Positions 1 to 64,000 of a stretch of 64,000 nt of DNA are shown here, piece by piece. The DNA comes from an uncultured Pseudomonadota bacterium. GTDB taxonomy: Bacteria > Desulfobacterota > Binatia > Binatales > Binataceae. The notes below the pieces were generated by a model. The model saw only the letters and a list, made by a program, of their open reading frames with translations. It ran no database searches and was not told where the DNA came from. Both the position numbers and the translations under genes were made by a program. The stretch is taken from positions 2,849,579 to 2,913,578 of the forward strand of contig CAVWXK010000001.1 in the NCBI GenBank assembly GCA_963759165.1, given 5' to 3'. Positions within the stretch are counted from its first letter, which is position 1. Each line of letters opens with the position of its first letter.

Positions 1-974
1 AGGGCACGCTGCCTCCAAGTATCCCGACCACCTCGCGCCTGGTGCGAACGCTGGTCCATTCGGCCAGCATCGTGCGAATCTCGGGCGCGCGCTTCACACG
101 CTCGTCGTTGGTGGCGAAGTGTGGATCCGCCCCGAGCTGGGGCAATTCGATCTTGCGGCAGAGTTCCACCCAGTGATTGTCGGTCGGCGCGGCGATAACG
201 ACCCATCCGTCGCTGGTCGGCAACACCTCGTATGGGCACAGGAATGAAGTCACATTTCCTTCCGGAACCGGAATCTTGCCCTGAAGCGAGTACTGGTAAA
301 CGATACGCTCGCAGAGCGCCAGCACTCCGTCGTACATCGCGACGTCGACCATCTGGCCCTCGCCGGTGCGCTGGGCGTGCCACGCCGCAGCCAGGATGCC
401 CACCGCCAGCATCATCGCCGGCACGGTGTCGCCGATGCCGGGACCGGTCTTCATAGGCCGATCCGGCGCCGGCCCCGTGATGCTCATCAGCCCGCCCATC
501 GCCTGCACCACAAGATCATAGGCGGGACGATTCATGTGCTCGCTCGCGCCGGTCCTGGGATCGCCGAAGCCGCGGACACATCCGTAGACCAGACGGGGAT
601 TCACCTTCCGCAGCGATTCGTACGACAATCCCAGCCGGTCCATCACGCCGACGCGGAAGTTTTCGACTAATACGTCGGCATCTTTCACCAGGCGCATCAG
701 GATTTCGCGTCCCTCGGGAAGCCGGAAGTCGAGCGCGACGCCCTTCTTGCCGCGATTGATGCTCTGGAAATAGCCGCCCAGAACCCTGAGGCGATCATCC
801 GGCGCATACGGGCCGAAATCGCGGATCGGATCGCCGCCGAGCGGCTCGATTTTGAGCACGTCGGCGCCGAGATCGGCGAGCATCATGGTGCAGAACGGCC
901 CGGCGAGCATTCGGGTCAGATCGATCACCTTGAGACCGCTCAGCAGCGCCGGGAGATTTCGCGACGCCGCTCAT
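1..974 (-). CDS. CoA-transferase family III (CaiB/BaiF-like); C-terminus cut by window edge
   Basis: Reverse-strand ATG at 974..972 opens a frame encoding [56 protein letters not shown]..., a typical family III CoA-transferase N-terminus and core. The frame stays open to position 1. Its start overlaps the stop of the upstream MaoC gene as ATGA. Confidence 0.8.
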
Positions 975-1457
975 GCCTTCGCTTTATAGCTGCGCCGCTT
1001 CATCAGCACCCGCCGCTCAGCCTCGAAGACCACCTGATCGTTCTGGTTGATGCCCCAATGGCGAAACAGCACCTCTCCCGTATCCGGCCGCTCGCCGTCG
1101 CTCTTCTCCACGACCTCGCTGAAGGCATAGAGCGTATCGCCGTGGAGCACGGGCGTCTTGAAACGTACCTTGTTCAGAGCTCAGCTCGGCGAGCGCATTC
1201 TCGCCCGTATCCTGCATCGCGAGTCCGATCACCAGCGACGCCGTGACGCCGCCGAAGGTGATTCGATGCTTCAACGGCGTCGCGGCCATCTGATGCTCGT
1301 TGAAATGCGCCTGCGCGGTGTTCATCACCAGATTGGTGATCAGCACGTTATCGATCTCGCCCACGGTCTTGCCGCGGGCATGCCGGTAAACGTCGCCCAC
1401 CTTGAAATCCTCGAAGTAGTTGTCTTTTCCCGTCATCTCTTGTGCTTCGATAAACAT
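971..1457 (-). CDS. MaoC-like hotdog-fold enoyl-CoA hydratase/dehydratase, interrupted by an apparent 1-nt frameshift near 1175-1187
   Basis: ORF 1017..1457 gives an N-terminal hotdog sequence (…GGVTASLVIGLAMQDTGENALAEL) and then becomes nonsense. A second frame continues as LNKVRFKTPVLHGDTLYAFSEVVEKSDGERPDTGEVLFRHWGINQNDQVVFEAERRVLMKRRSYKAKA and stops at 971. Confidence 0.65.
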
Positions 1458-1515
1458 TTTCTCACCTATCGATTCTTCCGGTTTACGCTAGCTTCCTTTT
1501 GGCGACGCGGACCAC

Positions 1516-4260: not shown

Positions 4261-6390
4261 ATGTCAGGAAGAGCAATAGTTTTGGGTATCGATGCCGGCG
4301 GGACGATGACCGACACCTTCATCGTCGATGAGACCGGAGAGTTCACGGTCGGCAAGGCCGCCACCACCCCGCACGACGAATCGGTCGGCTTTCTCGAATC
4401 CGCCGCGGATGCGGCATCCTACTGGAAAACCGATCACAGCTCGCTGTATCCCCAACTCGAAGTGGCGCTCTATTCCGGCACCACGATGCTTAACACGCTG
4501 CTCACGCGGCGCGGCAAGAAACTTGGGCTCGTCACCACCAGGGGCTTCGAGGATGACATCCTGATGGGACGCGGGATGCAGAGCTGGACCGGCTATTCTT
4601 ATTCGGACCGCATCCATGCCGTGACCCACGTGCATCCGGCGCCGCTGATGGAACGCCGCCACGTCTACGGCGTCACGGAACGCGTCGACATGTCCGGCGA
4701 CGCCGTCATTCCGCTGTATGAGCACGAGGTGAAGGCGGCGGCCGAAGGGCTGATCGCGGATGGCGTCGAGGCGATCGTCGTGCACTTCCTTTATTCGTAC
4801 CTCAATACGTCGCATGAGCAGCGCGCCGGGGAAATTATTGAAGAGTCTCTCGCCCGTGCGGGCCGAAAGATTCCGGTCTATCTGGGCAGCAGCCTCCGGC
4901 CCGTGATTCGCGAAAACTCGCGCTTGAACGCGGCGCTGATTGAGGCATTCGCCGTCGGCCCGGTTCGCGAGCAGTTGTACAAGGTTGAAGAGGCCGTGCA
5001 GACGCGCGGCTATCGCTACTCGCTGCAAACGCTGCTGGCTTACGGAGGCCTGTGCAACATCCGCTATCCGCGCCTGCACGAGACCCTGATTTCGGGGCCG
5101 GTCGGCGGCGTGATGGGCGCGAAGTACATCAGCGCGCTGACCGGGATGGAAAATATCATCGTGACCGATCTCGGCGGCACCAGCTTCGATATCGGCACGA
5201 TCACGCGCGGCTACGTGCCGGTCGACGCCGAGCCGGTGATGGCGCGCTTCAAGATGAATCTGCCGACGCTCGCGATGGAGAGTATCGGCGCGGGAGCGGG
5301 AAGTTACGTCACGGTCGATCCGGTCACCAAAAAAGTCCAGGTCGGCCCCTCCAGCGCGGGCTCCACGCCGGGACCGGTATGCTTCGACAAGGGCGGCAAG
5401 ATCGTAACTATCACCGATTGCGATCTGCTGCTCGGCTACCTCAACCCGGACTATTTTCTCGGCGGCAAGCAGAAGCTCAACAAGCAGCTTGCGCTCGACG
5501 CTCTCAAGGAGCAGGTCACCAATCTTATCGGCGTTGACGTTTACACCGGCGCCGAGGCGATCGTGCGGATGACTGAGCGCGAGGCCCGCGACGCGATCCG
5601 GGCGGTCGCCTCGGCGCGCGGGCTGGACACGACGCAGTATTATCTTTTCGGGTACGGCGGCGCCGGCCCGCTGCATGTGGCGGGTTACTCGGAGGGACTG
5701 GATTTCAAGGGTGTTCTGACCTTCCACTTCGCCGCCGCGTTTTCGGCTTTTGGCGCGACAACCGCCGACTACGAGCATCGCTACTCGCGCTCGGTGCCCC
5801 TGGCATTGCCGGCGGGATCCGATCCGAGCGCCAAGCTCGCGGTCGCCGAAGCCATCAACAAGACCTGGGAGGAGATGGAAAAGGCGGCGCGCGCCGAGAT
5901 GACAATGGAGATCGCGCGGGGCGAAAAGATCAAGTTCGCCCATCTCGCGATGATCCGTTACGGCGGACAACTGAGCGACCTCGAAGTGGTCTCGGCGCAG
6001 CCCCGATTACGCTCGGACCGTGATGTCGATCGGCTGATCGCGGACTGGGAGGAACTTTACTCCAAGATTAATTCGCGCGTGGCGCGCTACGAGCAGGCCG
6101 GCTACCAGATCTTCGAGCTGGGGCTGCTGGCCTCGGTCGGAAAGGTCAAACCGCGCATCGTCAAGCAGCGCAAGGTCGGCGCGAAGCCCGACAAGAAAGC
6201 GTCCAAGGGCACACGCAACATATTCTGGAAAGGCCGGTGGGCGCCCGCCTCGTTGTGGGAGATGGAGCTGCTGCGCCCCGGCAATCGCATCGACGGACCC
6301 GCGGTCATCGAGCACCCGGCCACCACCCTGGTCGTACCTCCAGGCAAGCGGGTCGAAATCGACGAATTCAATTTCTTCTGGCTAAAGTAA
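4261..6390 (+). CDS. hydantoinase/oxoprolinase family protein A; acetone-carboxylase beta-subunit-like
   Basis: 709-aa ORF whose N-terminus AIVLGIDAGGTMTDTFIVDETGEF matches Hydantoinase_A / acetone carboxylase AcxA. It is followed by B-type and gamma subunit genes. Confidence 0.85.
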   Translation: MSGRAIVLGIDAGGTMTDTFIVDETGEFTVGKAATTPHDESVGFLESAADAASYWKTDHSSLYPQLEVALYSGTTMLNTLLTRRGKKLGLVTTRGFEDDILMGRGMQSWTGYSYSDRIHAVTHVHPAPLMERRHVYGVTERVDMSGDAVIPLYEHEVKAAAEGLIADGVEAIVVHFLYSYLNTSHEQRAGEIIEESLARAGRKIPVYLGSSLRPVIRENSRLNAALIEAFAVGPVREQLYKVEEAVQTRGYRYSLQTLLAYGGLCNIRYPRLHETLISGPVGGVMGAKYISALTGMENIIVTDLGGTSFDIGTITRGYVPVDAEPVMARFKMNLPTLAMESIGAGAGSYVTVDPVTKKVQVGPSSAGSTPGPVCFDKGGKIVTITDCDLLLGYLNPDYFLGGKQKLNKQLALDALKEQVTNLIGVDVYTGAEAIVRMTEREARDAIRAVASARGLDTTQYYLFGYGGAGPLHVAGYSEGLDFKGVLTFHFAAAFSAFGATTADYEHRYSRSVPLALPAGSDPSAKLAVAEAINKTWEEMEKAARAEMTMEIARGEKIKFAHLAMIRYGGQLSDLEVVSAQPRLRSDRDVDRLIADWEELYSKINSRVARYEQAGYQIFELGLLASVGKVKPRIVKQRKVGAKPDKKASKGTRNIFWKGRWAPASLWEMELLRPGNRIDGPAVIEHPATTLVVPPGKRVEIDEFNFFWLK

Positions 6391-6409
6391 CGGCGGAGGC
6401 ACTGTATCG

Positions 6410-8640
6410 ATGAAAGCCGCAGTAAAACGCGTTGCGAAGGTTTCCCCAGGGCATCGAGGGAGCGGTCCCGGCGGGTTGACCCTGCTCGAAGCTCTTAAGC
6501 GCAACCGTGAATTGTTCGAGAAGACCGGCCACTATCACGGGATCAAAAATCTCAAGCTGAAGGCCGACAACTACCTGCGCTATGAAAGTCTTCATGCGCG
6601 CCTGCGTTCGGCGGTAGTCAACGCCCGCGAGATGTCGAAAAAGATCTCGGCCTCGCCGGGCGTGCGCGAAGTCGGCGAGTCGGTGGTCGCGCTTTATACG
6701 CCGGAAGGCGACAGCATCGCGCTCTCCACCGGCATCATGGTCCACGTGCATACGCTCAGCCGCTTCATCCAGTGGATGATCGAGCACGATTACGAGACCG
6801 ATCCGGGAATCGCCGCGGGCGACGTCTTCGCCAACAACGATCCTTTCATCTCCGACGTCCACCCGCCCGACCTGATGAACGTCGCGCCCATCTTTCACGA
6901 GGGCGAACTGATCGCCTGGGTCGGCACCGTCGCCCACGAACTCGAAATCGGCGGCGTGACCGGCGGCGCCAACCAATCGACGACGGCGGAGCGATACGGC
7001 CAGGGGCTGACCGTAAGCGCCGAGAAAGTCGCGGTCAACGATGTAATCCGCCGCGATTTCCTGGTGCGCGCCGAGATGAACCTGCGCACGCCGATTTATT
7101 ACATCCTGGATGAGAAGGCGATGGTCGCCGCCTGCATCGAGGTGCGCGAGAAGGTGCTCGAGATCGTCAACGAAAACGGCATCGATTATTTCAGGCAGGC
7201 GGTCCGCGACATCATCGAGGAAGGCCGCCGCGCCCACCTCGAGCGGATGAGATTGCTGACCGTGCCCGGCCGTTATCGTTCGGCGGCGTTTTGCGGCCAC
7301 GTCTTCGAAGGCAAGGTGGGCACATCGGGGCTCAGCAACAACTGCATCGTTCACATACCGCTCGACATGACCATCGACCGCGACGCCCTTATGACCATCG
7401 ATTACGAAGGCGTCGGACCCAAGATGTGGAATCCGTACAACTGTCCGCCGGCGGCGATGGACGGCGGTTTCTTCGTGACGCTCACGCAGTTCATCGATTT
7501 CGACGGCAAGGTCAACGACGGATGCTGGTACGCGACGAAAATGATCCTGCCGCCCGGCAGCTGGGCCAATCCGATGGATAACGCGACATCCACGTCGTCG
7601 GCGTGGGCGTCGTTGATGCCGGGCTTCGGCTCTCTGCAGCGGATGATCAGCCGCAGCTTTTACGCGCGCGGCTTCCGCGAAGAAATCTTCGTGGGCCAGG
7701 TCAACACTCCGATCATGGAAGGCGGCGGCATCAACCAGTACGGACAGCGCTTCGGCGCGCAGAACCTCGATGCGCCGCCGAGGGCAGCGGCGCGCGCGGC
7801 ATCATGGACGGCATCGATTGCGGCTACGTCGGATGGAATCCGGAATCCGACATGGGCAACGTCGAGGTCTGGGAGATGTCGATCCCGATTCTGTATCTGG
7901 GCCGGCGCATCTGGCGCGATTCGGGAGGCGCGGGCAAATACCGGGGCGGAGCGACGTTCAGCTCGCTCCTGATGATCCACAAGACGCCGCTTTACAACCT
8001 TGTCTCGACGATCCATTCCGACAAGCTGTTCGACAATCAGGGCATGTGCGGCGGCTATCCCGGCCCGACCGCGCGGTTCCAATATGTGGGCCGCAACAGC
8101 AACATTCGCGAGCTCATCGCGAATCAGGCGCCGCTGCCGCATGTCGAAGGCGACCCGCAATCGCCCGATATGGAGCGCCTGGTCAAGAGCGAATTCGAAA
8201 CCGTGGACGGCGTGTTCCTCGACCGTCCGCTCAGCGACGGCGACCTGTTCCAGTTCTTCTATAACACCGGCGGCGGATACGGCGATCCGATCGAGCGCGA
8301 TCCCGAAGGCGTGCGCGTCGACCTCGACAAAGGCATCCAGTCGGCCGAGCTTGTGGCCAAGGTGTACGGCGTAGTCGCCCGGTTCGATCCCGCGACCAGG
8401 TTGCATACCATCGACGCGGAAGCGACCCGCAAGACACGCGAGCAATGCCGTCGCGATCGTGCGGCGCGCGCGATGCCGGTAAAGGATTGGATGGCCGGAC
8501 AGCGCGATCGCCTGCTCAATCAGAATGTCGGCCGGGAAGTCAAAGATATGTACAACGATGTATTCAGATTTTCCGAACGATGGGGCAGCGAGTATCGCGA
8601 GTTCTGGAATCTTCCCGCCGATTTCACTTTCAAGGTCTGA
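6410..8640 (+). CDS. hydantoinase B / acetone-carboxylase alpha-subunit-like, interrupted by an apparent 1-nt indel near 7770-7785
   Basis: ORF 6410..7972 carries the Hydantoinase_B N-terminal two-thirds (…GINQYGQRFGAQNLDA). The -1 frame (ORF 7603..8640) continues as EGSGARGIMDGIDCGYVGWNPESDMGNVEVWEMSIPILYLGRRIWRDSGGAGKYRGG…. The switch lies in gatgcgccgccgagggc. Confidence 0.8.
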
Positions 8641-8657
8641 GGTTCAGGGAGCGTCTT

Positions 8658-9143
8658 ATGAATAGCTATCCCAAGGATGTGGTTCGGGATTTGATCGACG
8701 GCAAGCTGCCATGGCCGACGACCAAACAGATAATGAGCGACTTCAAGGATGCGGGCCGCTTCGAGACCTACCTTGAAATCATGCAGGAGCGCGTGCCGTG
8801 GAAGGAGCGCATCCTGTTGCCGATCGGCGAGCATCTTTACATCGTGCAGAAAGGGAAGGCCCGCATCGTCAAATGCGACTGCGGCCACGAGTTCGGCCCG
8901 TACACCGAGAACTGGAAGCTGTCGGCATTGATTTACGTCCGCGACAACGCGGAGAAGCTCGAAGAAATTTACCCCGGCCATCGCAAGTGCGATCCGAACT
9001 GGATGGAGATTCGCGAGTACTACTGCCCGGGATGCCATACGCAGCTCGAAACCGAAGCGGTAACGCCCGGCTATCCGATCGTGTTTGATTTTCTGCCGGA
9101 TCTGGAGGCCTTCTACCGCGACTGGCTGAAAAAGCCATTGTAG
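8658..9143 (+). CDS. acetone-carboxylase gamma-subunit-like small Cys-rich protein
   Basis: ATG at 8658 is preceded by AGGGAG. The 161-aa product (MNSYPKDVVRDLIDGKLPWPTT…CDCGHEFGPY…YYCPGCHTQLE) has a CxC…CxxC zinc motif and the length typical of AcxC. It lies immediately downstream of the A/B subunits. Confidence 0.75.
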   Translation: MNSYPKDVVRDLIDGKLPWPTTKQIMSDFKDAGRFETYLEIMQERVPWKERILLPIGEHLYIVQKGKARIVKCDCGHEFGPYTENWKLSALIYVRDNAEKLEEIYPGHRKCDPNWMEIREYYCPGCHTQLETEAVTPGYPIVFDFLPDLEAFYRDWLKKPL

Positions 9144-9275: not shown

Positions 9276-9632
9276 ATGCAAAACGAGATCTCGGCGGCCA
9301 TCGCAGCGCATTCCGTATGGAAGAGCAGGCTCCGGACGGCGATCGACAGCGGGAAGAGCGAATTTTCTCCTGCCGTCGTAGCGCAAGACAACCATTGTGA
9401 CTTCGGCAAGTGGTTGCATGATACGGCGGCAACGAGTCTCAAAAACTCTCCGCACTACGGCAAGTGCGAGGAACTCCATCGCCAGTTCCACGCCAGCGCA
9501 GCCAAAGTATTGTCCTTGGCGTTGAGCGGAAAGAAGGACGAGGCGCATCGGTCCATGGATCTGAACGGCGACTATGATGTCGCCTCGACAGCGCTGACCA
9601 AGGCGATGATGGACTGGAAAGCCGCGAAATAA
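9276..9632 (+). CDS. standalone chemoreceptor zinc-binding (CZB) domain protein
   Basis: 118-aa ORF containing the CZB ligand set: HSVW (H-xx-W), CDFGKWL (C-x-F-G-x-W) and HRQFH (H-xxx-H). GGGGGA lies 9 nt upstream of the ATG. Confidence 0.75.
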   Translation: MQNEISAAIAAHSVWKSRLRTAIDSGKSEFSPAVVAQDNHCDFGKWLHDTAATSLKNSPHYGKCEELHRQFHASAAKVLSLALSGKKDEAHRSMDLNGDYDVASTALTKAMMDWKAAK

Positions 9633-9671
9633 GATAGCCGCGGACCGTCTCGAAGGCGCGACGGATTCGCC

Positions 9672-9912
9672 TTATCCCCAAGGAACGCATAAGAGGCGGC
9701 GCGCTGGGCCGACTCGATGCTGCCCTCATGCACAAGACGGGAGATGCCTTGCGCCTTCACCTCGATCTCTAGCCGACGCATACGAACAAAGGGGAAAGCA
9801 CAAAATCATTACACCAAGGGACGGATTAGGCGCGGATGATGTTAGACGACCTGGGCTGATGTTTGCGGGGCGCCTGGCTGTAATCGCCGAAGGCGCGGTC
9901 GCGCTCGGCCGT
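9672..9912 (+). repeat. upstream copy (R1) of an imperfect ~240-bp direct repeat; a degenerate duplicate of the mazF 3' end plus the 3' end of the crotonase gene
   Basis: 9675-9771 differs at 5 positions from 10469-10565. 9829-9908 is identical to 10603-10680. The spacer between the two blocks differs between the copies. Confidence 0.8.
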
Positions 9913-9989
9913 CGCGATAAAGCGTCTGCCTGTACCTGGTACCGTCGCCGAGCATGAGCCTCGCACAGGCGCACCTTATTTGCTACCAT

Positions 9990-10016
9990 AGTTCTTACCA
10001 ATGGTAGGAACATGGT
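9990..10016 (+). promoter_or_regulatory. inverted repeat CTACCAT-N13-ATGGTAG immediately upstream of the antitoxin start; candidate autoregulatory operator
   Basis: ctaccatagttcttaccaatggtag ends 3 nt before the mazE-like ATG. Type II antitoxins commonly bind palindromes overlapping their own promoter. Confidence 0.35.
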
Positions 10017-10241
10017 ATGAGTGTGGCAAAACTTTCGGTTTCGCTTCCTGACTCGCTGGCCGGGTTCGTCGAAAACTATCGCAAAAAGCGCGGCTTGAAG
10101 AGCCGCTCCCAGGTCTTCGAGGAAGCGATCAAGCTGCTGAGAAGCCGGGAGTTGGAGGCCGCTTACCGGCAGGCGAGCGCGGAATACGATAAGGCATGGG
10201 ATAGCACTGTCTCGGACGGGCTGGCCGATGAGACGTGGTGA
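10017..10241 (+). CDS. ribbon-helix-helix antitoxin (ParD/CopG/MazE-like)
   Basis: 74-aa ORF MSVAKLSVSLPDSLAGFVENYRKKRGLKSRSQVFEEAIKLLRSRE… (RHH fold). It overlaps the toxin gene by 14 nt. Confidence 0.75.
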   Translation: MSVAKLSVSLPDSLAGFVENYRKKRGLKSRSQVFEEAIKLLRSRELEAAYRQASAEYDKAWDSTVSDGLADETW

Positions 10242-10563
10242 AATCTACTACGCGGATCTAAGCCCCACCGTCGGCTCCGAGATCAACAAACTCCGCCCGG
10301 TACTCATCGTCAGCAACGACGCGAACAACCGGGCGGCAACCACTGTAACCGTGCTTCCCATCACTTCCAACGTCAACAGGATTTATCCCTTCGAGGTCCA
10401 TCTGTCGTCCAAGGACAGCGGCCTACCAAAACCCTCGAAGGCGCAGGCGCAGCAAATCCGCACCATCTCCAAAGAACGCGTAAGAGGCGGCGCGCTGGGC
10501 CGACTCGATGCTGCCCTCATGCGCAAGACGGAAGATGCCTTGCGCCTTCACCTCGATCTTTAG
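10228..10563 (+). CDS. MazF/PemK family endoribonuclease toxin
   Basis: 111-aa ORF with PemK motifs (RGEIYYADLSPTVGSEINKLRPVLIVSND…VTVLPITS). Confidence 0.85.
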   Translation: MRRGEIYYADLSPTVGSEINKLRPVLIVSNDANNRAATTVTVLPITSNVNRIYPFEVHLSSKDSGLPKPSKAQAQQIRTISKERVRGGALGRLDAALMRKTEDALRLHLDL

Positions 10564-44572: not shown

Positions 44573-44586
44573 GATAGCGCGACCCC

Positions 44587-45765: not shown

Positions 45766-45784
45766 GGCTGCCGGCGATCCCACG

Positions 45785-48271: not shown

Positions 48272-48332
48272 CGGCGGCGCGCTTGTCCGGACGCTGAATG
48301 CTCTGCCAAGATAGGCGCAGGCCGCCAACGGT

Positions 48333-48370: not shown

Positions 48371-48454
48371 AGAAGACCGCCCGGAAGGCTACCGACCAAG
48401 CTGACATTACATTCGGCTGCCCTATGTGATAGAAAACTCTTGGTAACCAGCCGC

Positions 48455-48784: not shown

Positions 48785-48897
48785 CTCTTCCTCACTGTCT
48801 CTTGAGCCGGGAAACCACGAGGCGCCATGTTTCCGCCGTGGCGACAGGGGATCACAGGCTCTGCGATAAATTGGCTGGGTTTTCGGGTTGCAGCCTC

Positions 48898-53659: not shown

Positions 53660-54813
53660 TCACGCCGCCGTCACCATCATTCGCATTGCGCCACCCATCA
53701 GGGCCGAGAATGCCCGCGGATGTCGCATCAGCAAGTTGATTATTGTCCGCCGAGCGCGAGGATGGCGCGCGACCATCAACAGGCCGCTGGTGATAAACCA
53801 GTAGCCGCGATAGAACCGGCGCACCTCGCGTTCGTAAGGCTGCATACTCTCCTGCGTAGCGCCGCGCTTTAGAATTTCAGGGAGATGCTTGCCGAGCATC
53901 AACGCCGAGTTGAACGCGATCGACAGTCCCTCGCCGGAGATTGAATCCAGGAATCCCCCAGCGTCGCCGACCAGTACCATGCGATTGGCGTTGCGACGAG
54001 TCACAGCGTGCTCCATCGGCCCGGCTCCTTTAATCGTTGAAATCGCCGGGGCGATCCCAAGCCGCGCCCGCAGGGCCGGAAAACAGCGCATCAGCACCGA
54101 TATTTCCGGCTGCTCGATGACTCCATCTTCCCAGACGAAATTGATTCCGACGCTTTCGTCGGAGACCGGAGTCACCACAGCTTCGCCCTTGTCGTCCACG
54201 TAAACTTCGACGAAGTCGGTCCAGGGGCGAATCTGGTAATGCTGGCGCAGCGCGAAGCGGCGATGGGCGCACGGAACCGGGTCGAGGCCCGATGCCTTTC
54301 GGAGCGACGAGTGAAGCCCGTCTGCCGCGACGACCAGCCTGCCGAATAATTCGCCCTCGGTCGTGTACACCACCGCTTCGCTCGAGGTCGCCTTGTAGCC
54401 ATTGACCGAGCATCGATGGCGCAATACGGCCCCCAGTTCCTCCGCGCGGCGCGCCAGCGCCTCGACCAGTACCGTGCGCCTGATGCCCATCCCGTGGGAG
54501 GGCAGGCGCGCTTCCGCAGCGGAACCGTTTTCCTGGATGAAGCGAATTCCGGCGAATGGATAAAGACGTCGTGCGATCGAAACGATCGGCGATCTCCAAG
54601 GCGCTCGAGGGCCTTCACGCCCGGCGGCAGCACGCCTTCGCCGCAAGCCTTGTCCAGCGGGAAATCGCGACGCTCGACGACTACGACGGAGAGGCCCTGT
54701 TCCGCCGCGACGATTGCGACGGCGAGCCCCGCCGGTCCACCGCCGACTACGACGAGATCCCATATCGCGCGCGCGGGCGCTGATACATAGCTGGCGGCCG
54801 GCGTGCTAGCCAT
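53660..54813 (-). CDS. FAD-dependent oxidoreductase (geranylgeranyl-reductase / flavin-monooxygenase-like), interrupted by an apparent 1-nt indel near 54575-54600
   Basis: The N-terminus sits in ORF 54172..54813 (DLVVVGGGPAGLAVAIVAAEQGLSVVVVERRDFPLDKACGEGVLPPGVKALERLG), a Rossmann GxGxxG. The body sits in ORF 53660..54763 (…IARRLYPFAGIRFIQENGSAAEARLPSHGMGIRRTVL… GDAGGFLDSISGEGLSIAF). The frames switch inside a gatcg x3 repeat. Confidence 0.75.
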
Positions 54814-54819
54814 TTAGCA

Positions 54820-55917
54820 TCACCATCGCAGCAGAACCAACTCGCCGCAGAAACCGGGACCCATCGAGAGCAGCACCCCGTAGTCTCCTGGACGAGCGAC
54901 GTTCGCCTCCAGAAAGTCGGCCGCCACGAACAGCACCGACGCGGATGACAAATTTCCGATCGACGCGAGCGATTTCCAGGATCGCTGGAGACTGCATCGT
55001 GGTACTTCGAGCGCCGCCTCCATCGCCTGCAGCACTTTCGGTCCGCCGGTGTGAGCGATCCAATGCTTGATGTCGCGGCGCGAAAGCCCGTGCTCGTCGA
55101 GGAACGAATCCGCTCCCTGGCGCAGTTTATTTCGCACGAGGTCCGGAACGCCCGCCGACAGCACGATCTCGAAGCCGCTGTCCCCGATGTGCCAGCCCAT
55201 CATTTGCTCGGTGTCGTGAAAGAACATCGATCGCGACGCGACGATCCTCGGCAAGCGCGGCGCGCGGTCCTTCGCTCCGCCGCTTACAATCGCCGCCGCG
55301 GCCCCGTCCGCAAAAAGACCCGATGCGATTACGTTGGCAACCGACTGATCCTTCAACTGGAGCGTAAGCGAGCAGAGTTCTACTGAAACAAGAAGTGCCG
55401 TATGGCTTGGAAAAGCACGCAGGTAGTCCGCTGCTCGGGCCAACCCCGCTGCTCCGCCGACGCAACCGAGCCCGAAGATGGGAGTCCGCTTGATGTCCGC
55501 TCGCATCGACAGTCGATTCACGAGTTTGGCGTCGATGCTGGGCGACGCGATGCCCGTCACGGTAGTGAAAAAAATGTGGTCAACATCCGTCGGCGACAGT
55601 CCTGCTTGCGAAAGCGCCGATAAGGCCGCTTGTTCGCCGAGATCGGTCGCGCGTTCGATCCACTTATCGTTCGTCTTCGAGAATGAATCGAGGGCGCGGT
55701 AATCCTCCATCGGGAGCGCTAGATGGCGTCCGCGAACGCCGACCGAACGATGGATCCGCTCGAAGCGGGCGCGGCCTTCGTCGCTGCCGTCCCATTCCTT
55801 CCAAAGCGCCGCGGAAATCACTTCCTGCGGATAGTAGTTTTCCGGTAGAGCGCGGCCGATCGATCGCAATAGCGGGTGGTTCGTGGCTGATGGCTCATTC
55901 CTTGCCGTGTTGTGCAT
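54820..55917 (-). CDS. type III polyketide synthase (chalcone/stilbene synthase family)
   Basis: …LLRSIGRALPENYYPQEVISAAL… N-terminus. Active-site Cys in IFGLGCVGGAAGL. C-terminal GDYGVLLSMGPGFCGELVLLRW. The start is taken at MHNTAR (365 aa) and could be 26 codons earlier. Confidence 0.85.
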   Translation of the reverse strand: MHNTARNEPSATNHPLLRSIGRALPENYYPQEVISAALWKEWDGSDEGRARFERIHRSVGVRGRHLALPMEDYRALDSFSKTNDKWIERATDLGEQAALSALSQAGLSPTDVDHIFFTTVTGIASPSIDAKLVNRLSMRADIKRTPIFGLGCVGGAAGLARAADYLRAFPSHTALLVSVELCSLTLQLKDQSVANVIASGLFADGAAAAIVSGGAKDRAPRLPRIVASRSMFFHDTEQMMGWHIGDSGFEIVLSAGVPDLVRNKLRQGADSFLDEHGLSRRDIKHWIAHTGGPKVLQAMEAALEVPRCSLQRSWKSLASIGNLSSASVLFVAADFLEANVARPGDYGVLLSMGPGFCGELVLLRW

Positions 55918-56357
55918 GTTAACCGGGATTTCGCGCTTCCAGACCGTCGGTGTTCTGAGCCGGCAGCCTCGGTAGAGGTTTAGAGCACGATTCATGTCGT
56001 CCGCGTGTCGAGGTGATGTTCTTTGTGTGCTGCAAGGCAGCAGCGACAGGCGCACGTTCCTAGCAAACCGCCTGCCATCCGTTTACGCTGATATCAACGG
56101 CCAATCGCTAGGCTTCTCGTCGCTGCATCTCTACGACGACATGGGTTGTCCAAAAATTCGAACGCAAAAAAAGGTTCGTGTACAAACTTTTGAACGAAAT
56201 GAGATAGGCCTTACGGAATTTGGGTCATCGTCAAAAGGATTTCATTAAAGATGGCGGCATCGCGTTTGCTCATGGGGCCGTCTCCTCCGGAGACGGACAG
56301 GTGGCGATTGTTGCCACCGCTCGATTCGTTCGGACGGTTGACCGACTCTGACCAAAA

Positions 56358-57699
56358 ATGACCGAGCATAAACCGAGCGATAGTCTCTGGGCGATTAGCT
56401 CCCTTACAAGCGCGATGGGCAATGGCGCCGCCGAATTCGCGGTGGACGACCAGGAATCCTTTCGCCGGCAGGAATTCGTCTTCGCTTCTCTGAATCTTTT
56501 GCTGATTGGTGCACTGTTGGCGCTGCAAGCGATCTCGAAGTTCGTCCGTGGCAAACCTTCCGCGTCGGTTATCATCGTCCTGGCGGTGGGTTTGAGCGTA
56601 CAGGCGGCTCACCTAATCTGGCTGCGCAAGAGGAACGCGACAATTTCCCGGAGAACACGACGGTTCCTCACTTTCTGGTCTCTCGGCTTCAACTCGATAC
56701 TGGCGTTGGCGCTCACCTCGTTGACCATCAGAGGAGACACTGCGTACTACGCCCTGATGCTTCTTCCGATACTCGAAGCGGCTTTCAGGCTCGGCCTTGG
56801 CGCCACGATTGCGGTGGTTGTACTGGCGGACTTCATCAGCTTCATGGGCGCCTATGGCCTGAAATTCGGCGAGTACATCGAAGCCGGCGCGATGTCGGTA
56901 ATCTACAGCGTGATGGGGGTGCTGGTGTGGCTGCTGGTCAACAATCTACGCACTCGCGAGGCCAAATTCGTGCACAATCTCGAGGAACTCGAACGTACCC
57001 GCCAGCAATTGCTCTCTGAAGAGAAGCTTGCCGCAATCGGCCGATTGTCCAGAGCGATCGCGCACGAAATCCGAAATCCCGTTGCGATGATTTCCAGCTC
57101 GTTGGCAACCGCTATCCGGCCGGGTCAGAACAAAACAGAACGAGAAGAAATGTTCTCGATAGCGGCAAAGGAAGCCGTGCGTCTCGAACGGCTGACCAGC
57201 TGACTTCCTGGTTTACGCGCGTCCGCGTCCCGTGCAGATCGCGCGGGCAAACCTCGCCGACACTCTGAACTACGTCGCTACTCTCGCTCGCGCGCACGCG
57301 GCCAATGAAGGTGTAGCGATCGATGTCGCTGTCGACAGCAAGCTTGAGGGGGAGTTCGATGCGAACCAGATGCATCAGGCGCTCCTGAACCTGGTGCTCA
57401 ACGCAATCGACGCATGTCATCGAGGGGATGTGGTTAAGCTCGACGCGCAGATGAACGGAAACGGCACCATCCGAATCGACGTAGTCGACCCGGCTGGTCC
57501 GATTCCCGCGGAAGTCGTGGCGCGTATTTTCGAGCCGCTGTTTACCACCAAGCGGGGCGGCAACGGACTCGGTCTCGCGATCGCGCGCAACATCGCGCGC
57601 GCGCATGGCAGCGACATCGTGCTGAGATTCAACGAAACGCGGCGGGTATGCTTTTCCATCGAGATACTGGCGCACTTCCCGAGCCAATCCCTCAAATAG
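56358..57699 (+). CDS. sensor histidine kinase (membrane, HisKA plus HATPase_c), interrupted by a +1 T insertion at about 57200 that creates a TGA
   Basis: ORF 56358..57203 holds the TM region plus H-box (RLSRAIAHEIRNPVAMI) and ends …RLERLTS*. The next frame continues PADFLVYARPRPVQIARANLADTLNYV… into the HATPase_c domain (ORF 57232..57699; N-box LLNLVLNAIDA, G-boxes GGNGLGLAIARNIARAHG). The sequence agcTgac has one base more than the expected agc-gac. Confidence 0.8.
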
Positions 57700-57709: not shown

Positions 57710-59116
57710 ATGGGCAAGATACTCATTGTGGATGACGAACCGCACTTGCGGCGGATACTCATCTCCAATCTGAAGCAGGAGCATCACGAGGTAGTCGAGG
57801 CTGCCGGTGTCAACGATGCGCGAGGCGCGCTTGCCGAGCACACATTCGATGCCGTCATAACTGACCAGAAGATGGCCGATGGCGAAGGATTGGACGTCCT
57901 GGCCGCGGCGCGGGAAGCTGATCCGAATCTGTCCGTGCTTTTTCTGACCGCGTTTGCGACCATTGAACTCGCGGTGGAAAGCATGCGCCGCGGCGCATTC
58001 GATTTCATCACCAAGCCCTTCGTTCCTGAAGTCTTGCTGGCGTCGGCCACCCGCGCTATGGAGCACACGCGGCTTGTGCGTGAGAACGCCAGGCTCCGCG
58101 ACACGGTGGTGCGCCTTGAAGGCTCCTCGGAGCTCTCAGGGCGCAGCCTGGCGATTCGCCAACTCCGCGAAAAAATCGCGCGCGTCGCGCCGACCAACGC
58201 CACCGTCCTGATCACCGGGGAAACGGGGACCGGCAAGGAGCTGGTCGCCCGCGCGATTCATCGCAACAGCCTGCGTGCCGGGAAGACGCTGGTCGCCGTC
58301 AATTGTGCTGCGTTTACCGAAACGCTTCTGGAAAGCGAGCTGTTCGGACACGAGCGGGGAGCTTTCACCGGCGCCGATCGCGCGCGCGAGGGAGTCTTCG
58401 AGGCCGCGCACGAAGGTACGCTTTTTCTCGACGAGGCCGCCGAAATGTCGCTGCAGGCGCAGGCCAAGCTGCTGCGGGTGTTGACGGACGGGCTGATTAC
58501 CCGGCTCGGATCGACCAAGCCCCGGCACACCGATGTGCGGCTGCTGGTCGCGACCAACAGGGATTTGAAGCGTCGCGTGGAAGAGGGCCGCTTTCGCGAG
58601 GACCTCTACTACCGGCTGGCGGTGGTTCCTCTCACGGTTCCCGCTCTGCGCGATCATCGCGAGGACATACCCGAGCTTTGCGCCCTGTTCCTGGCGCAGG
58701 CTGTGCGCGACCTGAACACGCCGCCGCGCAGAATCAGCGCCGAAGCGCTTGGCACGCTCCTCAGCTACGATTTTCCCGGGAATATCCGCGAACTTCGCAA
58801 CCTCATCGAGCGCGCATGCATTCTCTCAGCCGAGGAGGAAATCACCCAGGAGAACTTTCCGGTGTCAACGCCTCGCAGCGCAAACGGCCTTGCGGCCCGC
58901 AGTTCCGCCGAACTCACCACCGACCAGCTTGCCGAGATGATGCCCGAGACACACAACCTGCGAGAGTTTCTCGCTTCGCTGGAAAAAGCGGTGATTCAGC
59001 GCGCGCTGAAGATAACCGATGGTGCGCAGGCGGAAGTCGCGCGCCGGCTAGGAATGTCGCGAAGCGATCTTTCATACAAGCTCGGCAAACACCGCATCAA
59101 GAGCGCGGCGAACTAA
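57710..59116 (+). CDS. sigma54-dependent response regulator (REC plus AAA+ sigma54-activator plus Fis-type HTH; NtrC family)
   Basis: Phospho-acceptor Asp in the DAVITDQKM context. Walker A GETGTGKE, GAFTGA sigma54-contact motif, and C-terminal HTH (QAEVARRLGMSRSDLSYKL). Confidence 0.9.
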   Translation: MGKILIVDDEPHLRRILISNLKQEHHEVVEAAGVNDARGALAEHTFDAVITDQKMADGEGLDVLAAAREADPNLSVLFLTAFATIELAVESMRRGAFDFITKPFVPEVLLASATRAMEHTRLVRENARLRDTVVRLEGSSELSGRSLAIRQLREKIARVAPTNATVLITGETGTGKELVARAIHRNSLRAGKTLVAVNCAAFTETLLESELFGHERGAFTGADRAREGVFEAAHEGTLFLDEAAEMSLQAQAKLLRVLTDGLITRLGSTKPRHTDVRLLVATNRDLKRRVEEGRFREDLYYRLAVVPLTVPALRDHREDIPELCALFLAQAVRDLNTPPRRISAEALGTLLSYDFPGNIRELRNLIERACILSAEEEITQENFPVSTPRSANGLAARSSAELTTDQLAEMMPETHNLREFLASLEKAVIQRALKITDGAQAEVARRLGMSRSDLSYKLGKHRIKSAAN

Positions 59117-59415: not shown

Positions 59416-60743
<1,328 letters not shown>

Positions 60744-60751
<8 letters not shown>

Positions 60752-62028
60752 GCGCTTCTTTCCTCAGCGGAATATCGACGATGAACCTGCTGCCATGACC
60801 GGGTTCACTCTCCACGAAGATGCGGCCCTCGTGAGCCTCGACGATTTCCTTGGCGATGTAAAGTCCGAGCCCGGCCGATCCCGCGCGGGCCGGATTGTCG
60901 GGAAATTGCGCGTAAGGCTCGAAAATCCTGCCGAGCAGCTCGCGGGCGATTCCGGGGCCGGTATCGGACACGACAATGCGCGCCGTGCCGTCGCGGCGGC
61001 TGAGTTCCACGGCGATTCGGCCGCGCTCGGGAGTGTAACGCAGCGCGTTGCCGACCAGGTTGGTAACTACCCACGGCAGCTTGATCGGATCGCCCCAGAT
61101 CGGGATTGGGCGATCCGCGACCGTCAGCTCGAAGCGGATGCCCTTGTCCGCGGCCTGCATCGCGAGCGGGCGGCAGACTTCTTCGAGCACGGCGGCGAGC
61201 ATAATCGGGCGGCGCTCGACGCTGATGCGGGCGGCGCTTGAACGCGAGGCGTCGAGCAAATCGTTGGCAATGGCCTGGAGACGACTGAACGTCCTCGCGC
61301 AATGAGGCGAGAATTTCCCGCCGGTGGGGATTCGACTCGGCGGACATCGACTCGGCCAGCAGCTCGGAGGCGATGGTAAGTGAGGTCAGCGGCGTCTTGA
61401 GTTCGTGCGAGAGCGTGCCGATCAGATTGGTGCGGGCGCGCTCCTGATCCCGAACAAAAGTGACGTCCTGGAGCAGCACGATGGTGCCGAGCGGCTCGGT
61501 GCCGGCGGCGCCGGACTGCGCGAGAGCGTCTCCATCGTTGTGCGCCGAATGCGGACCTGTCCACGGTAATCGGCGCGCGAGATAAGTATGATCGCGACCG
61601 CGGATGAAGACCTTGAACTCGGTCGGCGCGCCGTCGCCGCCGCGATCGCGCTCGAACGCGGCCGTCAGCCGCATCACGTGAGGATTGTGCCCGGCGAGTT
61701 GCTCCAGCGAGCTTCCGAGCACGCCGTCGGGCTCAAGCCCAAGGATCGCGCGAGCGACTTCATTGATATGGACGATGGCCCCGGTGCGGTCGAGCACGAT
61801 GAGGCCGTCTTCGATACTCTCGATGATAGCCGCGGTCTTGGAACGCTCGCGATCAAGCTCGGCAACGCGCGTGCTGTAGCCCGCCTGCATCCGTGCTACC
61901 ATCGTGCGTGAAAGCGCGTAGCTAAAAACGGCCAGCATCACCGCGCTCATCAGGAGCAGCAGCATTGACTCAGCGCGCTCCGTCAAAGATGAGCGCTGGA
62001 TAACAAACGCGTCGAGCGCCGCCGTCAT
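60744..62028 (-). CDS. sensor histidine kinase (TM, PAS-like, HisKA, HATPase_c), interrupted by an apparent +1 T insertion near 61285
   Basis: ORF 60805..62028 gives the N-terminal sensor plus H-box ([13 protein letters not shown]) up to …LREDVQ, then turns into nonsense. ORF 60744..61259 in the adjacent frame continues …[36 protein letters not shown]… through the N/G boxes ([13 protein letters not shown]; DTGPGIA; [19 protein letters not shown]). Confidence 0.8.
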
Positions 62029-62182
62029 CAGGACGAGAATCAGAATCTTCAGCCGGATGTGGCCGCATCCGGCTAAAGAACGGCCACTCCGGGCGGCTTG
62101 ACCTGCCTGCGGCGGCCGATGGGTAAGACATAGCGCATTGTACCGTCGCCGGCGGCGGGCAAATCAAGACGGAGGTTCCCCA

Positions 62183-62281: not shown

Positions 62282-62297
62282 GCTTTGCGTCAGGATA
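62282..62297 (+). promoter_or_regulatory. candidate sigma54 (-24/-12) promoter TGGCGC-AGGCT-TTGCG driving the APC transporter gene
   Basis: The GG and GC dinucleotides are spaced exactly as in the TGGCAC-N5-TTGCA consensus. It lies about 75 nt upstream of the transporter ORF. Two sigma54-dependent activators are encoded within 3 kb. Confidence 0.45.
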
Positions 62298-62372
62298 GCG
62301 GTTTAAGCGTTACCAGCTCATTCGTTTCGCAAGAGGAAGCTTCGTTTGGCAGTAGCCACTAACCCCCCCCAA

Positions 62373-64000
62373 TTGGCGTCAGCGGCGCCGAGTTCTCCAG
62401 CAGCCAGCGGCAGGCAAACCAGGGTCATCGTGGTCACCTCCGCGATGCTGACCTTTATCTCGTTCTGGCGGGTCTCGGCGATCGTGCTATGCGACCTCGC
62501 GTCGACGGCCTACTACATCGGCGGCATCGTCGAGCAGGCGGTCGGGCCAGCGGCGCCGTACTTCATCTTTGCGGTGATGCTGTTCTCGTACGCGGTGCGG
62601 GCGGTCTACGTCGAGTCGTGCTCGATGTTCACGCGGGGCGGCGTATATCGGGTGGTCAAGGAAGCGATGGGCGGCACGCTGGCCAAGCTTTCGGTTTCCG
62701 CCCTGATGTTCGACTACGTTCTGACCGGGCCGATAAGCGGGGTGTCGGCGGGACAGTATCTCGCCGGCCTGATCAACGAGACCCTGAAGCAGGCGCATAT
62801 TCCGGTGGCGCTGCCGCCGGATTTCGCCGCGGCGATATTCGCGATCGCGATTACGTTTTACTTCTGGCACCAGAACATCATGGGGATCGAGGAATCGAGC
62901 GGCAAAGCGATGCGCATCATGCAGATCACCACCGTGATGGCGGTGATCACCATCGTCTGGTGCAGCGTGACGCTCTACACCCGCGGCTTTCATCTTCCGC
63001 CCTTTGTGCCCAAGTTCACGGATACCTCCCTGGGCTGGCTGAAGCATCTGCCGGCGGCACGCACCTTCGGCCTCCTGGGCATCATGATCGCGTTCGGTCA
63101 TTCGATTCTGGCGATGTCGGGCGAGGAATCGCTGGCCCAGGTCAACCGCGAAATCGAGGCGCCCAAGCTCAAGAATCTGCTCCGCGCGGGCTTCGTGATC
63201 TTCATCTACAGCATGCTGCTGACCTCGCTGATCTCTTTCTTCGCGGTGATGATCATCCCGGACAGCGTGCGGATGGCCCATTACAGCGACAACCTGATTG
63301 GCGGCCTGGCGATGTTCGTGGTTGGGCCGCTGTGGCTCAGACTCGCGTTTCGAGCGTTCGTGGTATTCGTCGGCTTCCTGATCCTGGCGGGCGCGGTGAA
63401 CACCGCGATCGTGGGCTCCAACGGTGTGCTCAACCGGGTGGCCGAAGACGGCGTGCTGCTCGACTGGTTCCGCCATCCGCATCCCCGTTACGGCACCTCG
63501 CATCGGATCATCAACATGGTCGCGATTCTGCAGATCGCCACCATCGTGCTCTCGCGCGGCGACATGTACGTGCTCGGCGAGGCCTACGCCTTCGGGGTCG
63601 TGTGGAGCTTCGTATTCAAGAGCTTGTCGGTGCTGGTGCTGCGCTATCGCAATCGCAGCCATCGGGCGTGGCGCGTACCGTTTAATCTCCCGTGGCCTAA
63701 AATCGGCGGAGTCGAATTCCCGGTGGGACTGGCACTGATCTTTTTGGTGCTGTTCGCGACCGCGATGGTCAATCTGTTCACCAAGCAGGTGGCGACGATT
63801 TCCGGCCTCGCCTTCACGCTGGTGCTGTTTGGCGTGTTCGAGATCTCGGAACGAATGAACAGCGGCGTCAAGCATGCTTACGGCGAGGAACTCGAAAAAT
63901 TCAACCTTGAAGTGGTCGAGGATGAAAGCACCATTAGCCCGGCGACTCTGGGATTGAACGGGCATGGAAAGAAGCTAATCGCGATCCGCGATCCCAATAA
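62373..64000 (+). CDS. APC-superfamily amino acid/polyamine transporter (3' end beyond window)
   Basis: The frame is open from 62307 to the window end and is not in the ORF table because it has no stop. It encodes …IGGIVEQAVGPAAPYFIFAVMLFSYAVRAVYVESCSMFTRGGVYRVVKEAMGG… and at least 11 further TM helices. The start may be TTG at 62373, GTG at 62430, or ATG at 62445. Confidence 0.8.
   Translation, partial: MASAAPSSPAASGRQTRVIVVTSAMLTFISFWRVSAIVLCDLASTAYYIGGIVEQAVGPAAPYFIFAVMLFSYAVRAVYVESCSMFTRGGVYRVVKEAMGGTLAKLSVSALMFDYVLTGPISGVSAGQYLAGLINETLKQAHIPVALPPDFAAAIFAIAITFYFWHQNIMGIEESSGKAMRIMQITTVMAVITIVWCSVTLYTRGFHLPPFVPKFTDTSLGWLKHLPAARTFGLLGIMIAFGHSILAMSGEESLAQVNREIEAPKLKNLLRAGFVIFIYSMLLTSLISFFAVMIIPDSVRMAHYSDNLIGGLAMFVVGPLWLRLAFRAFVVFVGFLILAGAVNTAIVGSNGVLNRVAEDGVLLDWFRHPHPRYGTSHRIINMVAILQIATIVLSRGDMYVLGEAYAFGVVWSFVFKSLSVLVLRYRNRSHRAWRVPFNLPWPKIGGVEFPVGLALIFLVLFATAMVNLFTKQVATISGLAFTLVLFGVFEISERMNSGVKHAYGEELEKFNLEVVEDESTISPATLGLNGHGKKLIAIRDPN

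Follow-up and report, generated by a model that had tools for sequence, protein, structure and literature searches.

Frame-disrupting lesions in an uncultured soil Binataceae contig: probable long-read consensus errors, partly at candidate methylation motifs

Disrupted genes in the window

The window, meaning the whole 64-kb stretch of DNA that was analyzed, lies on a 3,269,263-bp contig of an uncultured soil Binataceae bacterium and is therefore probably part of a long-read assembly. Ten of its approximately 54 genes carried lesions, 11 of them firm and one probable. These were nine +1 insertions, one -1 deletion, one CGA>TGA nonsense change and one probable +10-nt frame break. The lesion rate was approximately 1 per 5.3 kb (about 12 in 64 kb), with only one or two lesions in each affected gene. 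The disrupted genes and their lesions were as follows.

2-975, minus strand: CoA-transferase III gene, running off the window; +1 insertion at 944, at about codon 10
971-1457, minus strand: MaoC/mesaconyl-CoA-hydratase-like hotdog gene; +1 insertion at 1181 compared to relative L090
6410-8640, plus strand: acetone-carboxylase-like alpha (hydantoinase B) gene; 1 base missing at 7770/7771
19969-21136, minus strand: VWA-domain gene; +1 insertion at 20956
25692-26874, minus strand: GT4 glycosyltransferase gene; +1 insertion at 26661 (G on the plus strand)
34328-35467, minus strand: GT4 gene; in-frame TGA at 35237-35239
53660-54813, minus strand: FAD-dependent oxidoreductase gene; two +1 insertions at 54561-54562 and 54594-54595 compared to 6 relatives
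56358-57699, plus strand: histidine kinase gene; +1 insertion at 57199-57201, creating TGA
59416-60751, minus strand: AlgB-like sigma54 response regulator gene; +1 insertion at 59889-59890
60744-62131, minus strand: KinB-like histidine kinase gene; +1 insertion at 61288
62063-62086, minus strand: tentative second frame break in the KinB-like gene; net +10 nt compared to relatives

The evidence at each site was a nucleotide alignment to relatives, a Pfam profile across the break and restoration of the ORF by one base. Gene calling on GC3 only was too noisy and was replaced by a self-trained codon-usage frame scan. The firm lesions were absent from all relatives covering each site, and the ORFs of the relatives were uninterrupted there. 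Single-base repair regained a full-length ORF of homologue size in all eight genes tried. Pfam profiles and coding potential ran on past the breaks on both sides, in agreement with the original prediction that the disrupted genes show no other decay. No IS elements, larger deletions or elevated decay were seen when the window was compared to its relatives. No further uncompensated frameshifting indels were found in the coding parts covered by close relatives (1-9.1, 15.7-28.0, 29.4-37.9, and 49.6-62.3 kb), and a Pfam check gave no extra split genes at 14808/15502, 48201-49512, 45785/46162, or 9276-10563. Exact look-up of the ten repaired proteins gave no match, which is uninformative since gene callers pick other starts, as for the first GT4 gene, called as 377 aa and not 393 aa in contig L102. 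None of the disrupted genes was obviously essential.

The ATG of the CoA-transferase III gene, at 975, overlaps the upstream stop codon. A 10-residue peptide is encoded in one frame and LSGLKVIDL, at position 1 of the CoA_transf_3 profile, in the next. At 944 the window reads GCTCAGCAGCGCC compared to GCTGAG-AGCGCC in L090, and the lesion overlaps a GCTNAGC site at 938-944. The lesion at 1181 in the MaoC-like gene lies inside another GCTNAGC site at 1179-1185. Here the MC_hydratase profile was matched in two successive frames, at profile positions 222-299 and 294-352 respectively, and repair gave a 161-aa ORF. The acetone-carboxylase-like alpha gene reads CTCGA-TGC at its lesion compared to CTCGA[G/A]TGC in 7 relatives, with CTCGAG present in 4 of the 7. 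The Hydantoinase_B profile was matched at 5-329 and then at 380-519. The repaired protein was 743 aa, equal to homologues P0410 and P0412. In the VWA-domain gene the window has GGGGAGCTTCGAG and L081 has GGGGAG-TTCGAG; the repaired protein was 388 aa and that of L081 389 aa. If the true sequence at 20956 is GAGCTCGAGC, as is possible, the extra base falls within CT[T]CGAG.

At 26661 the first GT4 gene reads CCCAGAAATC compared to CCCA-AAATC in five relatives (L081-L085) and a same-strain contig. On the coding strand the extra base is a C interrupting TTTT. The repaired protein was 393 aa, equal to P0002. At the in-frame TGA of the second GT4 gene the relatives encode CGA (Arg), with TCG in L086 and L087. 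The closest homologues all have R at this position and are 379 aa, the size of the read-through product. The coding-strand change is GACGT[C>T]GA, at the last base of a GACGTC palindrome.

The two insertions in the FAD-dependent oxidoreductase gene are 34 nt apart and one does not compensate the other. The first is located 4 nt from GACGTC at 54565 and the second 9 nt from CTCGAG at 54604. The FAD_binding_3 profile was matched at 4-76 and then at 101-341, and removal of both insertions gave a protein of 383 aa. The histidine kinase gene at 56358-57699 reads ACCAGCTGAC compared to ACCA-CCGAC, with 10 relatives compared; HisKA is followed by HATPase_c across the break and the repaired protein was 446 aa. 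The lesion in the AlgB-like regulator gene was seen against L088 and L089 and abuts CTCGAG at 59891. The Sigma54_activat profile was matched at 7-147 and then at 144-167, and the repaired protein of 444 aa was equal to P0241. In the KinB-like gene the window has G[A]ACGTC at 61288 where relatives have GACGTC, with HisKA followed by HATPase_c across the break. A second frame break in this gene is probable at 62063-62086, where the net +10 nt creates a perfect 9-bp inverted repeat. A 461-aa ORF starting from the conserved ATG at 62131 was obtained once 61288 and any one base in 62055-62099 were deleted.

The nine disrupted genes of the original prediction were all confirmed by alignment to relatives (the orthologue comparison that it had proposed), Pfam continuity and ORF restoration. 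Its count of nine disruptions, or approximately 1 per 7 kb, was too low, and its statement that all other genes are intact did not hold for the CoA-transferase III gene, which it had not listed. Breaks placed at about 1175-1187 (MaoC-like gene) and about 59886 (sigma54 regulator), the in-frame TGA at 35237-35239 and an extra base making TGA at about 57200 were borne out. A break was also present in the acetone-carboxylase-like gene, predicted at about 7770-7785, as a deletion and not an extra base. The VWA-domain gene is disrupted, not in a C5 run at 20985-21000 but approximately 30-45 nt away. The extra base predicted at 26660-26666 exists and is not an added T in a T-run. The single lesion expected at 54575-54600 proved to be two, and the kinase break given as about 61285 stood while the probable second break in that gene had been missed.

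Motif clustering and lesion spectrum

Six or seven of the 11 firm lesions fall in GACGTC or CTCGAG or no more than 9 nt from one of them. Repair restored a motif at 35239, 61288, and 7771. The lesions at 59890, 54561, and 54595 are 1-9 nt from a perfect motif, and 20956 is a possible case. Association of at least four of the nine insertion lesions with a motif gave P = 2.7e-5, and that of the single substitution p = 0.005. The two motifs were picked after the SNP discordances between the window and Logan contigs had been seen, and these SNPs are separate from the lesions. Three of them occupy precisely the motif position of the substitution lesion. GCTNAGC was proposed from the lesions themselves and is a tentative third motif. 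AGCT, CAGCTG or GAGCTC had been suggested as a common motif by 1181, 20956, and 57200 and was dropped for the SNP-derived GACGTC and CTCGAG. No motif was present at 26661, at 57200 or at the 10-nt event. No homopolymer of 4 or more bases was found at the lesion sites, and no cognate methyltransferase gene was found in the window.

In a survey of every AACGTC and GACGTT site of the window, most were conserved in relatives and substitution errors at the motif are therefore not pervasive; the only exceptions are 35239 and perhaps 21245 and 26848. The spectrum comprised nine or ten insertions compared to one deletion. The usual mutation bias of bacteria is toward deletions, the opposite of this excess. 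Purine/pyrimidine ambiguity arises at RACG/CGTY close to methylation sites in R10.4.1 assemblies (Lohde et al. 2024, PMC11610573), which also contain C>T and G>A errors caused by modified bases (Liu et al. 2024, PMC11610603). The TGA change GACGT[C>T] fits the published RACG/CGTY pattern (PMC11610573).

Independent assembly and sister MAGs

The same strain is present in the Logan k-mer assembly of run ERR10755942, with 99.8-100% identity to the window. Contig L102 of this assembly, 99.8% identical, is without the insertion at 26661 and its GT4 gene was called as an intact gene of 377 aa. Of the 12 lesions, 26661 alone is in direct conflict with an independent same-strain assembly. With 7 SNPs relative to the window, L102 could derive from a co-occurring strain. 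The TGA at 35237-35239 is present in both assemblies, since the T is found in Logan contig L101 too, and very recent inactivation at individual sites is for this reason formally conceivable. In L101 two nucleotides are missing from a (TC)n run; this deletion, peculiar to L101, would break up a Wza-like gene, which the window carries intact. The reads of ERR10755942 are therefore noisy and, like the size of the window's contig, point to long reads. Nine SNPs were found between the window and the Logan contigs. Four were in GACGT[C/T], [G/A]ACGTC or CT[C/T]GAG and five were non-motif. Logan contig ends did not coincide with motifs, except for one end 14 nt past the TGA.

Sister MAGs L002 and L003 are Nanopore-only and were produced using Flye and one round of Medaka (PMC12313526). 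Unique +1 insertions were present in coding sequences of both, and one of these had an identical sequence context (GAGC[T]CAGCT). No unique +1 coding insertions were found in the Illumina MAGs L001, L005, and L006. The source paper of the sister MAGs describes Nanopore-associated error signs in the lower-coverage MAGs and mentions indel polishing (PMC12313526).

Origin of the lesions and consequences for annotation

The lesions are very probably artefacts and not biological pseudogenes, and in the organism itself all ten genes are most likely uninterrupted. We infer that all of the lesions are errors from their existence and uniqueness, their repair, the absence of one from an independent assembly and the motif enrichment. 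They would be uncorrected consensus errors in a long-read MAG, the platform most likely being Oxford Nanopore without short-read polishing. Uncorrected indel errors in the assembly were also the reading preferred in the original prediction, and the Logan contig, the motif clustering, the insertion bias and the sister MAGs support it. Most of the errors appear to be non-random, in or beside GACGTC and CTCGAG and possibly GCTNAGC. GACGTC and CTCGAG resemble restriction-modification methylation motifs. If they are methylated, the modified bases would distort the pore signal and cause systematic basecaller and consensus mistakes at and near the motifs. Methylation at these two motifs is a fairly likely driver of the lesions.

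Genuine and very recent pseudogenes, with about 18% of the genes of the region just inactivated, are highly unlikely. The TGA shared by two assemblies of the run would fit such inactivation, as would the lack of any obviously essential gene among those disrupted, and the contig without the 26661 insertion could with its 7 SNPs represent another strain. Against this, each gene has one or two lesions with no IS elements or larger deletions and an intact coding signal, and the insertion bias of 9-10:1 runs counter to the excess of deletions known from bacteria. The lesions gather at two palindromes at which the two assemblies of the run also differ from each other, the FAD-dependent oxidoreductase gene has two non-compensating insertions 34 nt apart, and the same kind of unique insertion occurs in the sister Nanopore MAGs. 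A fresh pseudogene fraction of 18% would be unprecedented for a free-living soil bacterium, and we know of no such case. A related reading takes the methylated restriction-modification palindromes GACGTC and CTCGAG as mutational hotspots, with real changes in an actively polymorphic population that is losing genes at these sites and of which the window and the Logan contigs would be samples. Deamination of methylcytosine would then give GACGT[C>T], including CGA>TGA, and error-prone repair at restricted sites would give the indels. This was judged very improbable.

Generic noise from low-coverage long reads, or a collapsed strain mixture, with a motif link that is due to chance or post hoc, is a doubtful explanation which nevertheless carries some weight. 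It would accommodate 26661, 57200, and the 10-nt event, which have no motif, and the selection of the motifs after data inspection. Outside the motifs, the Logan contigs contain 5 SNPs and a 2-nt deletion in a repeat, and lower-coverage sister MAGs show Nanopore-associated error signs (PMC12313526). However, P is about 3e-5 for the insertions with motifs derived from separate SNPs, the substitution lesion shares its exact motif position with three of those SNPs, and the pattern equals the RACG/CGTY signature (PMC11610573). Programmed recoding, whether by ribosomal frameshifting, transcriptional slippage or TGA read as selenocysteine or a reassigned codon, has a negligible probability. The downstream frame is open and protein-like after every break, which speaks for recoding, but no break is conserved and the ORFs of relatives are uninterrupted at all sites. 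The contexts differ, with no shared slippery motif and no homopolymer runs. Where the window has the in-frame TGA, homologues encode Arg and neither Cys nor Sec, and TGA is the regular stop codon of 15 out of 34 intact genes of the window.

Under the consensus-error reading the biological weight of the broken genes is small, and the annotation warning holds. About 18% of the window's genes are split or shortened when the contig is annotated from its ORFs. Such mis-splitting had been predicted and was seen in the stored fragments of 520 aa and 222 aa from the one 743-aa acetone-carboxylase-like protein. Genes of an acetone-carboxylase-like operon, exopolysaccharide glycosyltransferases and two-component systems are affected. 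Gene splitting of this kind skews pseudogene counts, the clustering of proteins and inferences on metabolism for the lineage. GACGTC and CTCGAG, perhaps with GCTNAGC, are probable methylation motifs of this uncultured bacterium. The error pattern marks likely methylation motifs and motif-aware re-polishing should therefore mend most of the lesions.

The lesions were compared to known systems. Programmed +1/-1 frameshifting is known in prfB, dnaX, and IS3-family transposases, and TGA recoding is also known. In these cases, as in the window, the frame continues in an adjacent frame or after a single stop; the window breaks differ in that they are not conserved, lack a slippery or stimulatory element and affect ten unrelated genes. 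Mycobacterium leprae and Sodalis have pseudogene-rich genomes in reductive evolution, with many genes carrying frameshifts or premature stops. The window is similar in the large fraction of genes with such lesions, but it is without genes that accumulate several lesions with age, IS expansion, large deletions or a deletion bias, its conserved coding signal persists, and its lesions are motif-tied. Frameshifted genes from indel errors in long-read assemblies and MAGs are reportedly addressed by Sereika et al. 2022. The window resembles such split genes in its single-base indels in conserved ORFs at approximately 1 per 5 kb, with no other decay, on a megabase soil-metagenome contig. Classically such errors are bases lost from long homopolymers, whereas insertions dominate in the window and its lesions are all outside homopolymers of 4 or more bases. 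The methylation errors of Nanopore R10.4.1 data (PMC11610573, PMC11610603) are alike in having transitions at [R]ACG / CGT[Y] in GACGTC, C>T and G>A changes, strain-specific palindromes and same-run assemblies that disagree. They differ in that the published errors are mainly substitutions and those of the window mostly 1-nt insertions, with methylation and platform both presumed in the present case.

Relatives of the window and frame breaks in its genes

The window had a G+C content of 62%. Its nearest relatives in a species-representative genome collection were Candidatus Binataceae and Candidatus Binatus MAGs, and the intact response regulator at 57710-59116 shared up to 94% amino-acid identity with relatives. 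Of ten intact window proteins looked up exactly, eight were present in the public collection, each on one contig of 3,269,263 bp (NCBI and ENA). So large a contig from an uncultured soil bacterium points to assembly from long reads. Microflora Danica (MFD) long-read MAGs made up many of the nearest relatives. These were built from Nanopore reads only, using Guppy super-accurate, Flye meta and one round of Medaka 1.8.0, with no short-read polishing (PMC12313526). DNA of relatives was obtained for every lesion site. The comparison loci covered window positions 49.6-59.1 kb (L001-L009 and L080), 15.7-31.6 kb (L081-L085), 30.9-37.9 kb (L086 and L087), 59.4-63.5 kb (L088 and L089) and 1-10.5 kb (L090-L096). 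The locus of Illumina MAG palsa_1089 (L079) had unique 2-nt deletions at 6831 and 7621, in the kinase/regulator region, when set against 10-11 relatives.

Nine genes had been listed as disrupted in the original prediction, at about one per 7 kb. A self-trained codon-usage scan showed a same-strand change of frame without a gap at eight of the nine sites; the signal near 26.6 kb was weak. Pfam profiles ran on across the breaks from one frame into the next. This was seen for MC_hydratase (222-299, then 294-352), Hydantoinase_B (5-329, then 380-519), FAD_binding_3 (4-76, then 101-341) and Sigma54_activat (7-147, then 144-167), and in both kinases HisKA was followed by HATPase_c. In alignments to the fetched loci the relatives were uninterrupted at all listed sites and the window differed by one base each time.

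Lesions at the listed genes, relative to the homologous DNA of relatives
1181, MaoC-like (MC_hydratase) gene, +1 insertion
7770/7771, acetone-carboxylase alpha gene, -1 deletion
20956, VWA gene, +1 insertion
26661, family-4 glycosyltransferase (GT4) gene, +1 insertion
35239, GT4 gene, plus-strand G>A, giving CGA>TGA in the gene
54561 and 54595, FAD oxidoreductase gene, two +1 insertions
57199-57201, histidine kinase gene, +1 insertion
about 59890, AlgB-like sigma54 regulator gene, +1 insertion
61288, KinB-like kinase gene, +1 insertion

Editing these bases gave ORFs of 161, 743, 388, 393, 379, 383, 446 and 444 aa, in agreement with known homologue lengths of 743, 389, 393, 379 and 444 aa. The disruption of all nine genes was thus borne out by alignment, Pfam continuity and the ORFs regained on repair, and several details were revised. 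The VWA lesion had been placed in a C5 run at 20985-21000 and lies at 20956. The change in the acetone-carboxylase alpha gene is a deletion. The FAD oxidoreductase is broken as stated, by two insertions 34 nt apart rather than one. The base added to the GT4 gene at 26661 is a coding-strand C breaking up TTTT and not an extra T.

A tenth broken gene, absent from that list, was the CoA-transferase III gene at 2-975. A +1 insertion at 944 cuts its ATG and first ten codons off the rest of the gene. The KinB-like kinase (60744-62131) probably has a second frame break close to its N-terminus, at about 62063-62086 on the minus strand. Here the window had a net gain of 10 nt over L088 and L089, two related loci, which forms a perfect 9-bp inverted repeat, AGCCGGATG-CGGCCA-CATCCGGCT, and takes the gene out of frame some 16 codons in. 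Possible origins are a templated mutation at a quasi-palindrome, an artefact of assembly and natural variation of the N-terminus. With both breaks repaired, the kinase ORF would be about 461 aa long. No further uncompensated frameshifting indels were seen in coding sequence covered by close relatives, and other ORF pairs that looked suspicious gave no more splits when checked with Pfam. The earlier count of nine genes therefore becomes 10, with about 12 lesions at a rate of roughly one every 5.3 kb.

The remaining gene content included the following.

Other features of the window
4261-9143, acetone-carboxylase-like operon: hydantoinase A (709 aa), hydantoinase B alpha (743 aa after repair) and a 161-aa gamma subunit
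9276-9632, CZB zinc-binding domain protein, after the operon
10228-10563, PemK/MazF toxin gene, after the CZB protein
24489-46375, minus strand, large exopolysaccharide locus
Within 53660-56055, type III polyketide synthase, chalcone/stilbene synthase-like, 411 aa, directly upstream of the FAD-dependent oxidoreductase

The exopolysaccharide locus encoded at least five family-4 glycosyltransferases, a 939-aa Wzy_C and TPR protein, a 775-aa Wzz/GNVR tyrosine-kinase-like protein and a Wza-like exporter. The polyketide synthase and FAD oxidoreductase may be a small biosynthetic pair for alkylresorcinol- or pyrone-type products.

A second assembly of the strain and the motifs at the lesions

The key result on the question of artefact came from run ERR10755942, whose Logan k-mer assemblies include the same strain. 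Contig L100 matched window 21112-23431 at 100% identity, and 7 SNPs set L102 apart from 23405-27266. Of contig L101 (12.8 kb), the stored 10.2 kb matched 35223-45469 with 2 SNPs. The extra base at 26661 was missing from L102, where the GT4 gene is intact and was called as 377 aa from an internal Met. The TGA at 35239 was also carried by L101. In this contig a (TC)n run was 2 nt shorter (window 44979-44980), a deletion that would split the Wza-like gene at 44587-45783 (Poly_export and SLBB), intact in the window. Indel errors thus occur in the independent assembly too. The reads of ERR10755942 are therefore error-prone, as expected of long reads.

Eight of the nine SNPs between the window and the Logan contigs were transitions, and four fell within the palindromes GACGTC and CTCGAG. 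The window had GACGTC where Logan had GACGTT (25295 and 25538) or AACGTC (38804), and CTCGAG where Logan had CTTGAG (36369). At 24733 CCAGG in the window was CCGGG in Logan, a Dcm-like context; the other non-motif SNPs were at 26846, 26982, 27150 and 27194. The two motifs were taken from the SNPs and then tested on the lesions. On the coding strand the TGA lesion reads GACGT[C>T]GA, the same motif position as in three of the SNPs. Lesion 61288 turns the GACGTC of relatives into G[A]ACGTC, the deletion at 7771 falls within CTCGA[G], and CTCGAG adjoins 59890. Insertion 54561 is 4 nt from GACGTC and 54595 is 9 nt from CTCGAG. The insertion at 20956 may read as CT[T]CGAG.

The window contains 20 GACGTC and 25 CTCGAG sites, and 1.7% of its positions lie within 9 nt of either. 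The probability of at least four of nine insertion lesions being motif-associated by chance was 2.7e-5, for motifs chosen after viewing the data. The chance that repair of a random transition yields a motif was 0.005. The left-end lesions 944 (site 938-944) and 1181 (site 1179-1185) each overlapped one of the window's 21 GCTNAGC sites. L003, a sister Nanopore MAG, had a unique +1 T with identical flanks, GAGC[T]CAGCT, at position 2152 in an unrelated locus. GCTNAGC is tentatively a third error-prone and perhaps methylated palindrome, derived from the lesions themselves. At 21245 and 26848 the window had AACGTC where a close relative had GACGTC. These may be additional motif-linked substitution errors that break no frame.

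Origin of the lesions

The lesions comprised nine to ten insertions, one deletion and one transition, and none fell in a run of at least four identical bases. Deletions are favoured among natural bacterial indels. No other decay was seen in the disrupted genes. In the 21-kb loci of close relatives one unique uncompensated +1 insertion was found in Nanopore MAG L002 (9170) and at least three in L003 (875, 2152 and 9091), with L002:9170 and L003:9091 both inside the histidine-kinase gene. No such insertions were found in Illumina MAGs L001, L005 and L006 over the same loci. This suggests that sister MFD Nanopore MAGs share the frameshift problem of the window.

Motif-linked errors in the Nanopore consensus are the most likely origin of the lesions, with no biological feature behind them. 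Assembly error had been the preferred original interpretation, and it was supported and sharpened. Genuine recent pseudogenisation is possible at individual sites, above all at the TGA and the 10-nt change, but as a whole it fits poorly with lesions that cluster at motifs, are mostly insertions and come with no further decay. Programmed frameshifting or recoding was excluded: the breaks were conserved in no relative, slippery motifs were absent, the residue at the TGA position is Arg in homologues, and 15 of 34 intact genes end in TGA. A weaker form of consensus error would be generic noise from low coverage, unconnected with methylation. It draws on the two or three lesions without a motif and on the picking of motifs after inspection of the data, and was considered unlikely. 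Split gene calls from the window are already present in public protein collections.

With regard to motif-linked consensus error, C>T and G>A errors caused by base modification remain in R10.4.1-only assemblies if the error fraction exceeds 50% (Liu et al. 2024, PMC11610603). Such a fraction would explain why the T at 35239 is found in the MAG as well as in the k-mer assembly. Insertions beside motifs, as in the window, are less well documented in the known methylation error mode; we infer that the window indels are linked to methylation. From the pattern of errors, GACGTC and CTCGAG can be proposed as motifs that the organism probably methylates. Lohde et al. (2024) described purine/pyrimidine ambiguities near methylation sites in R10.4.1 assemblies, with the motif RACG/CGTY (PMC11610573). 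This motif is an exact match to the [G/A]ACG...CGT[C/T] of the window within GACGTC.
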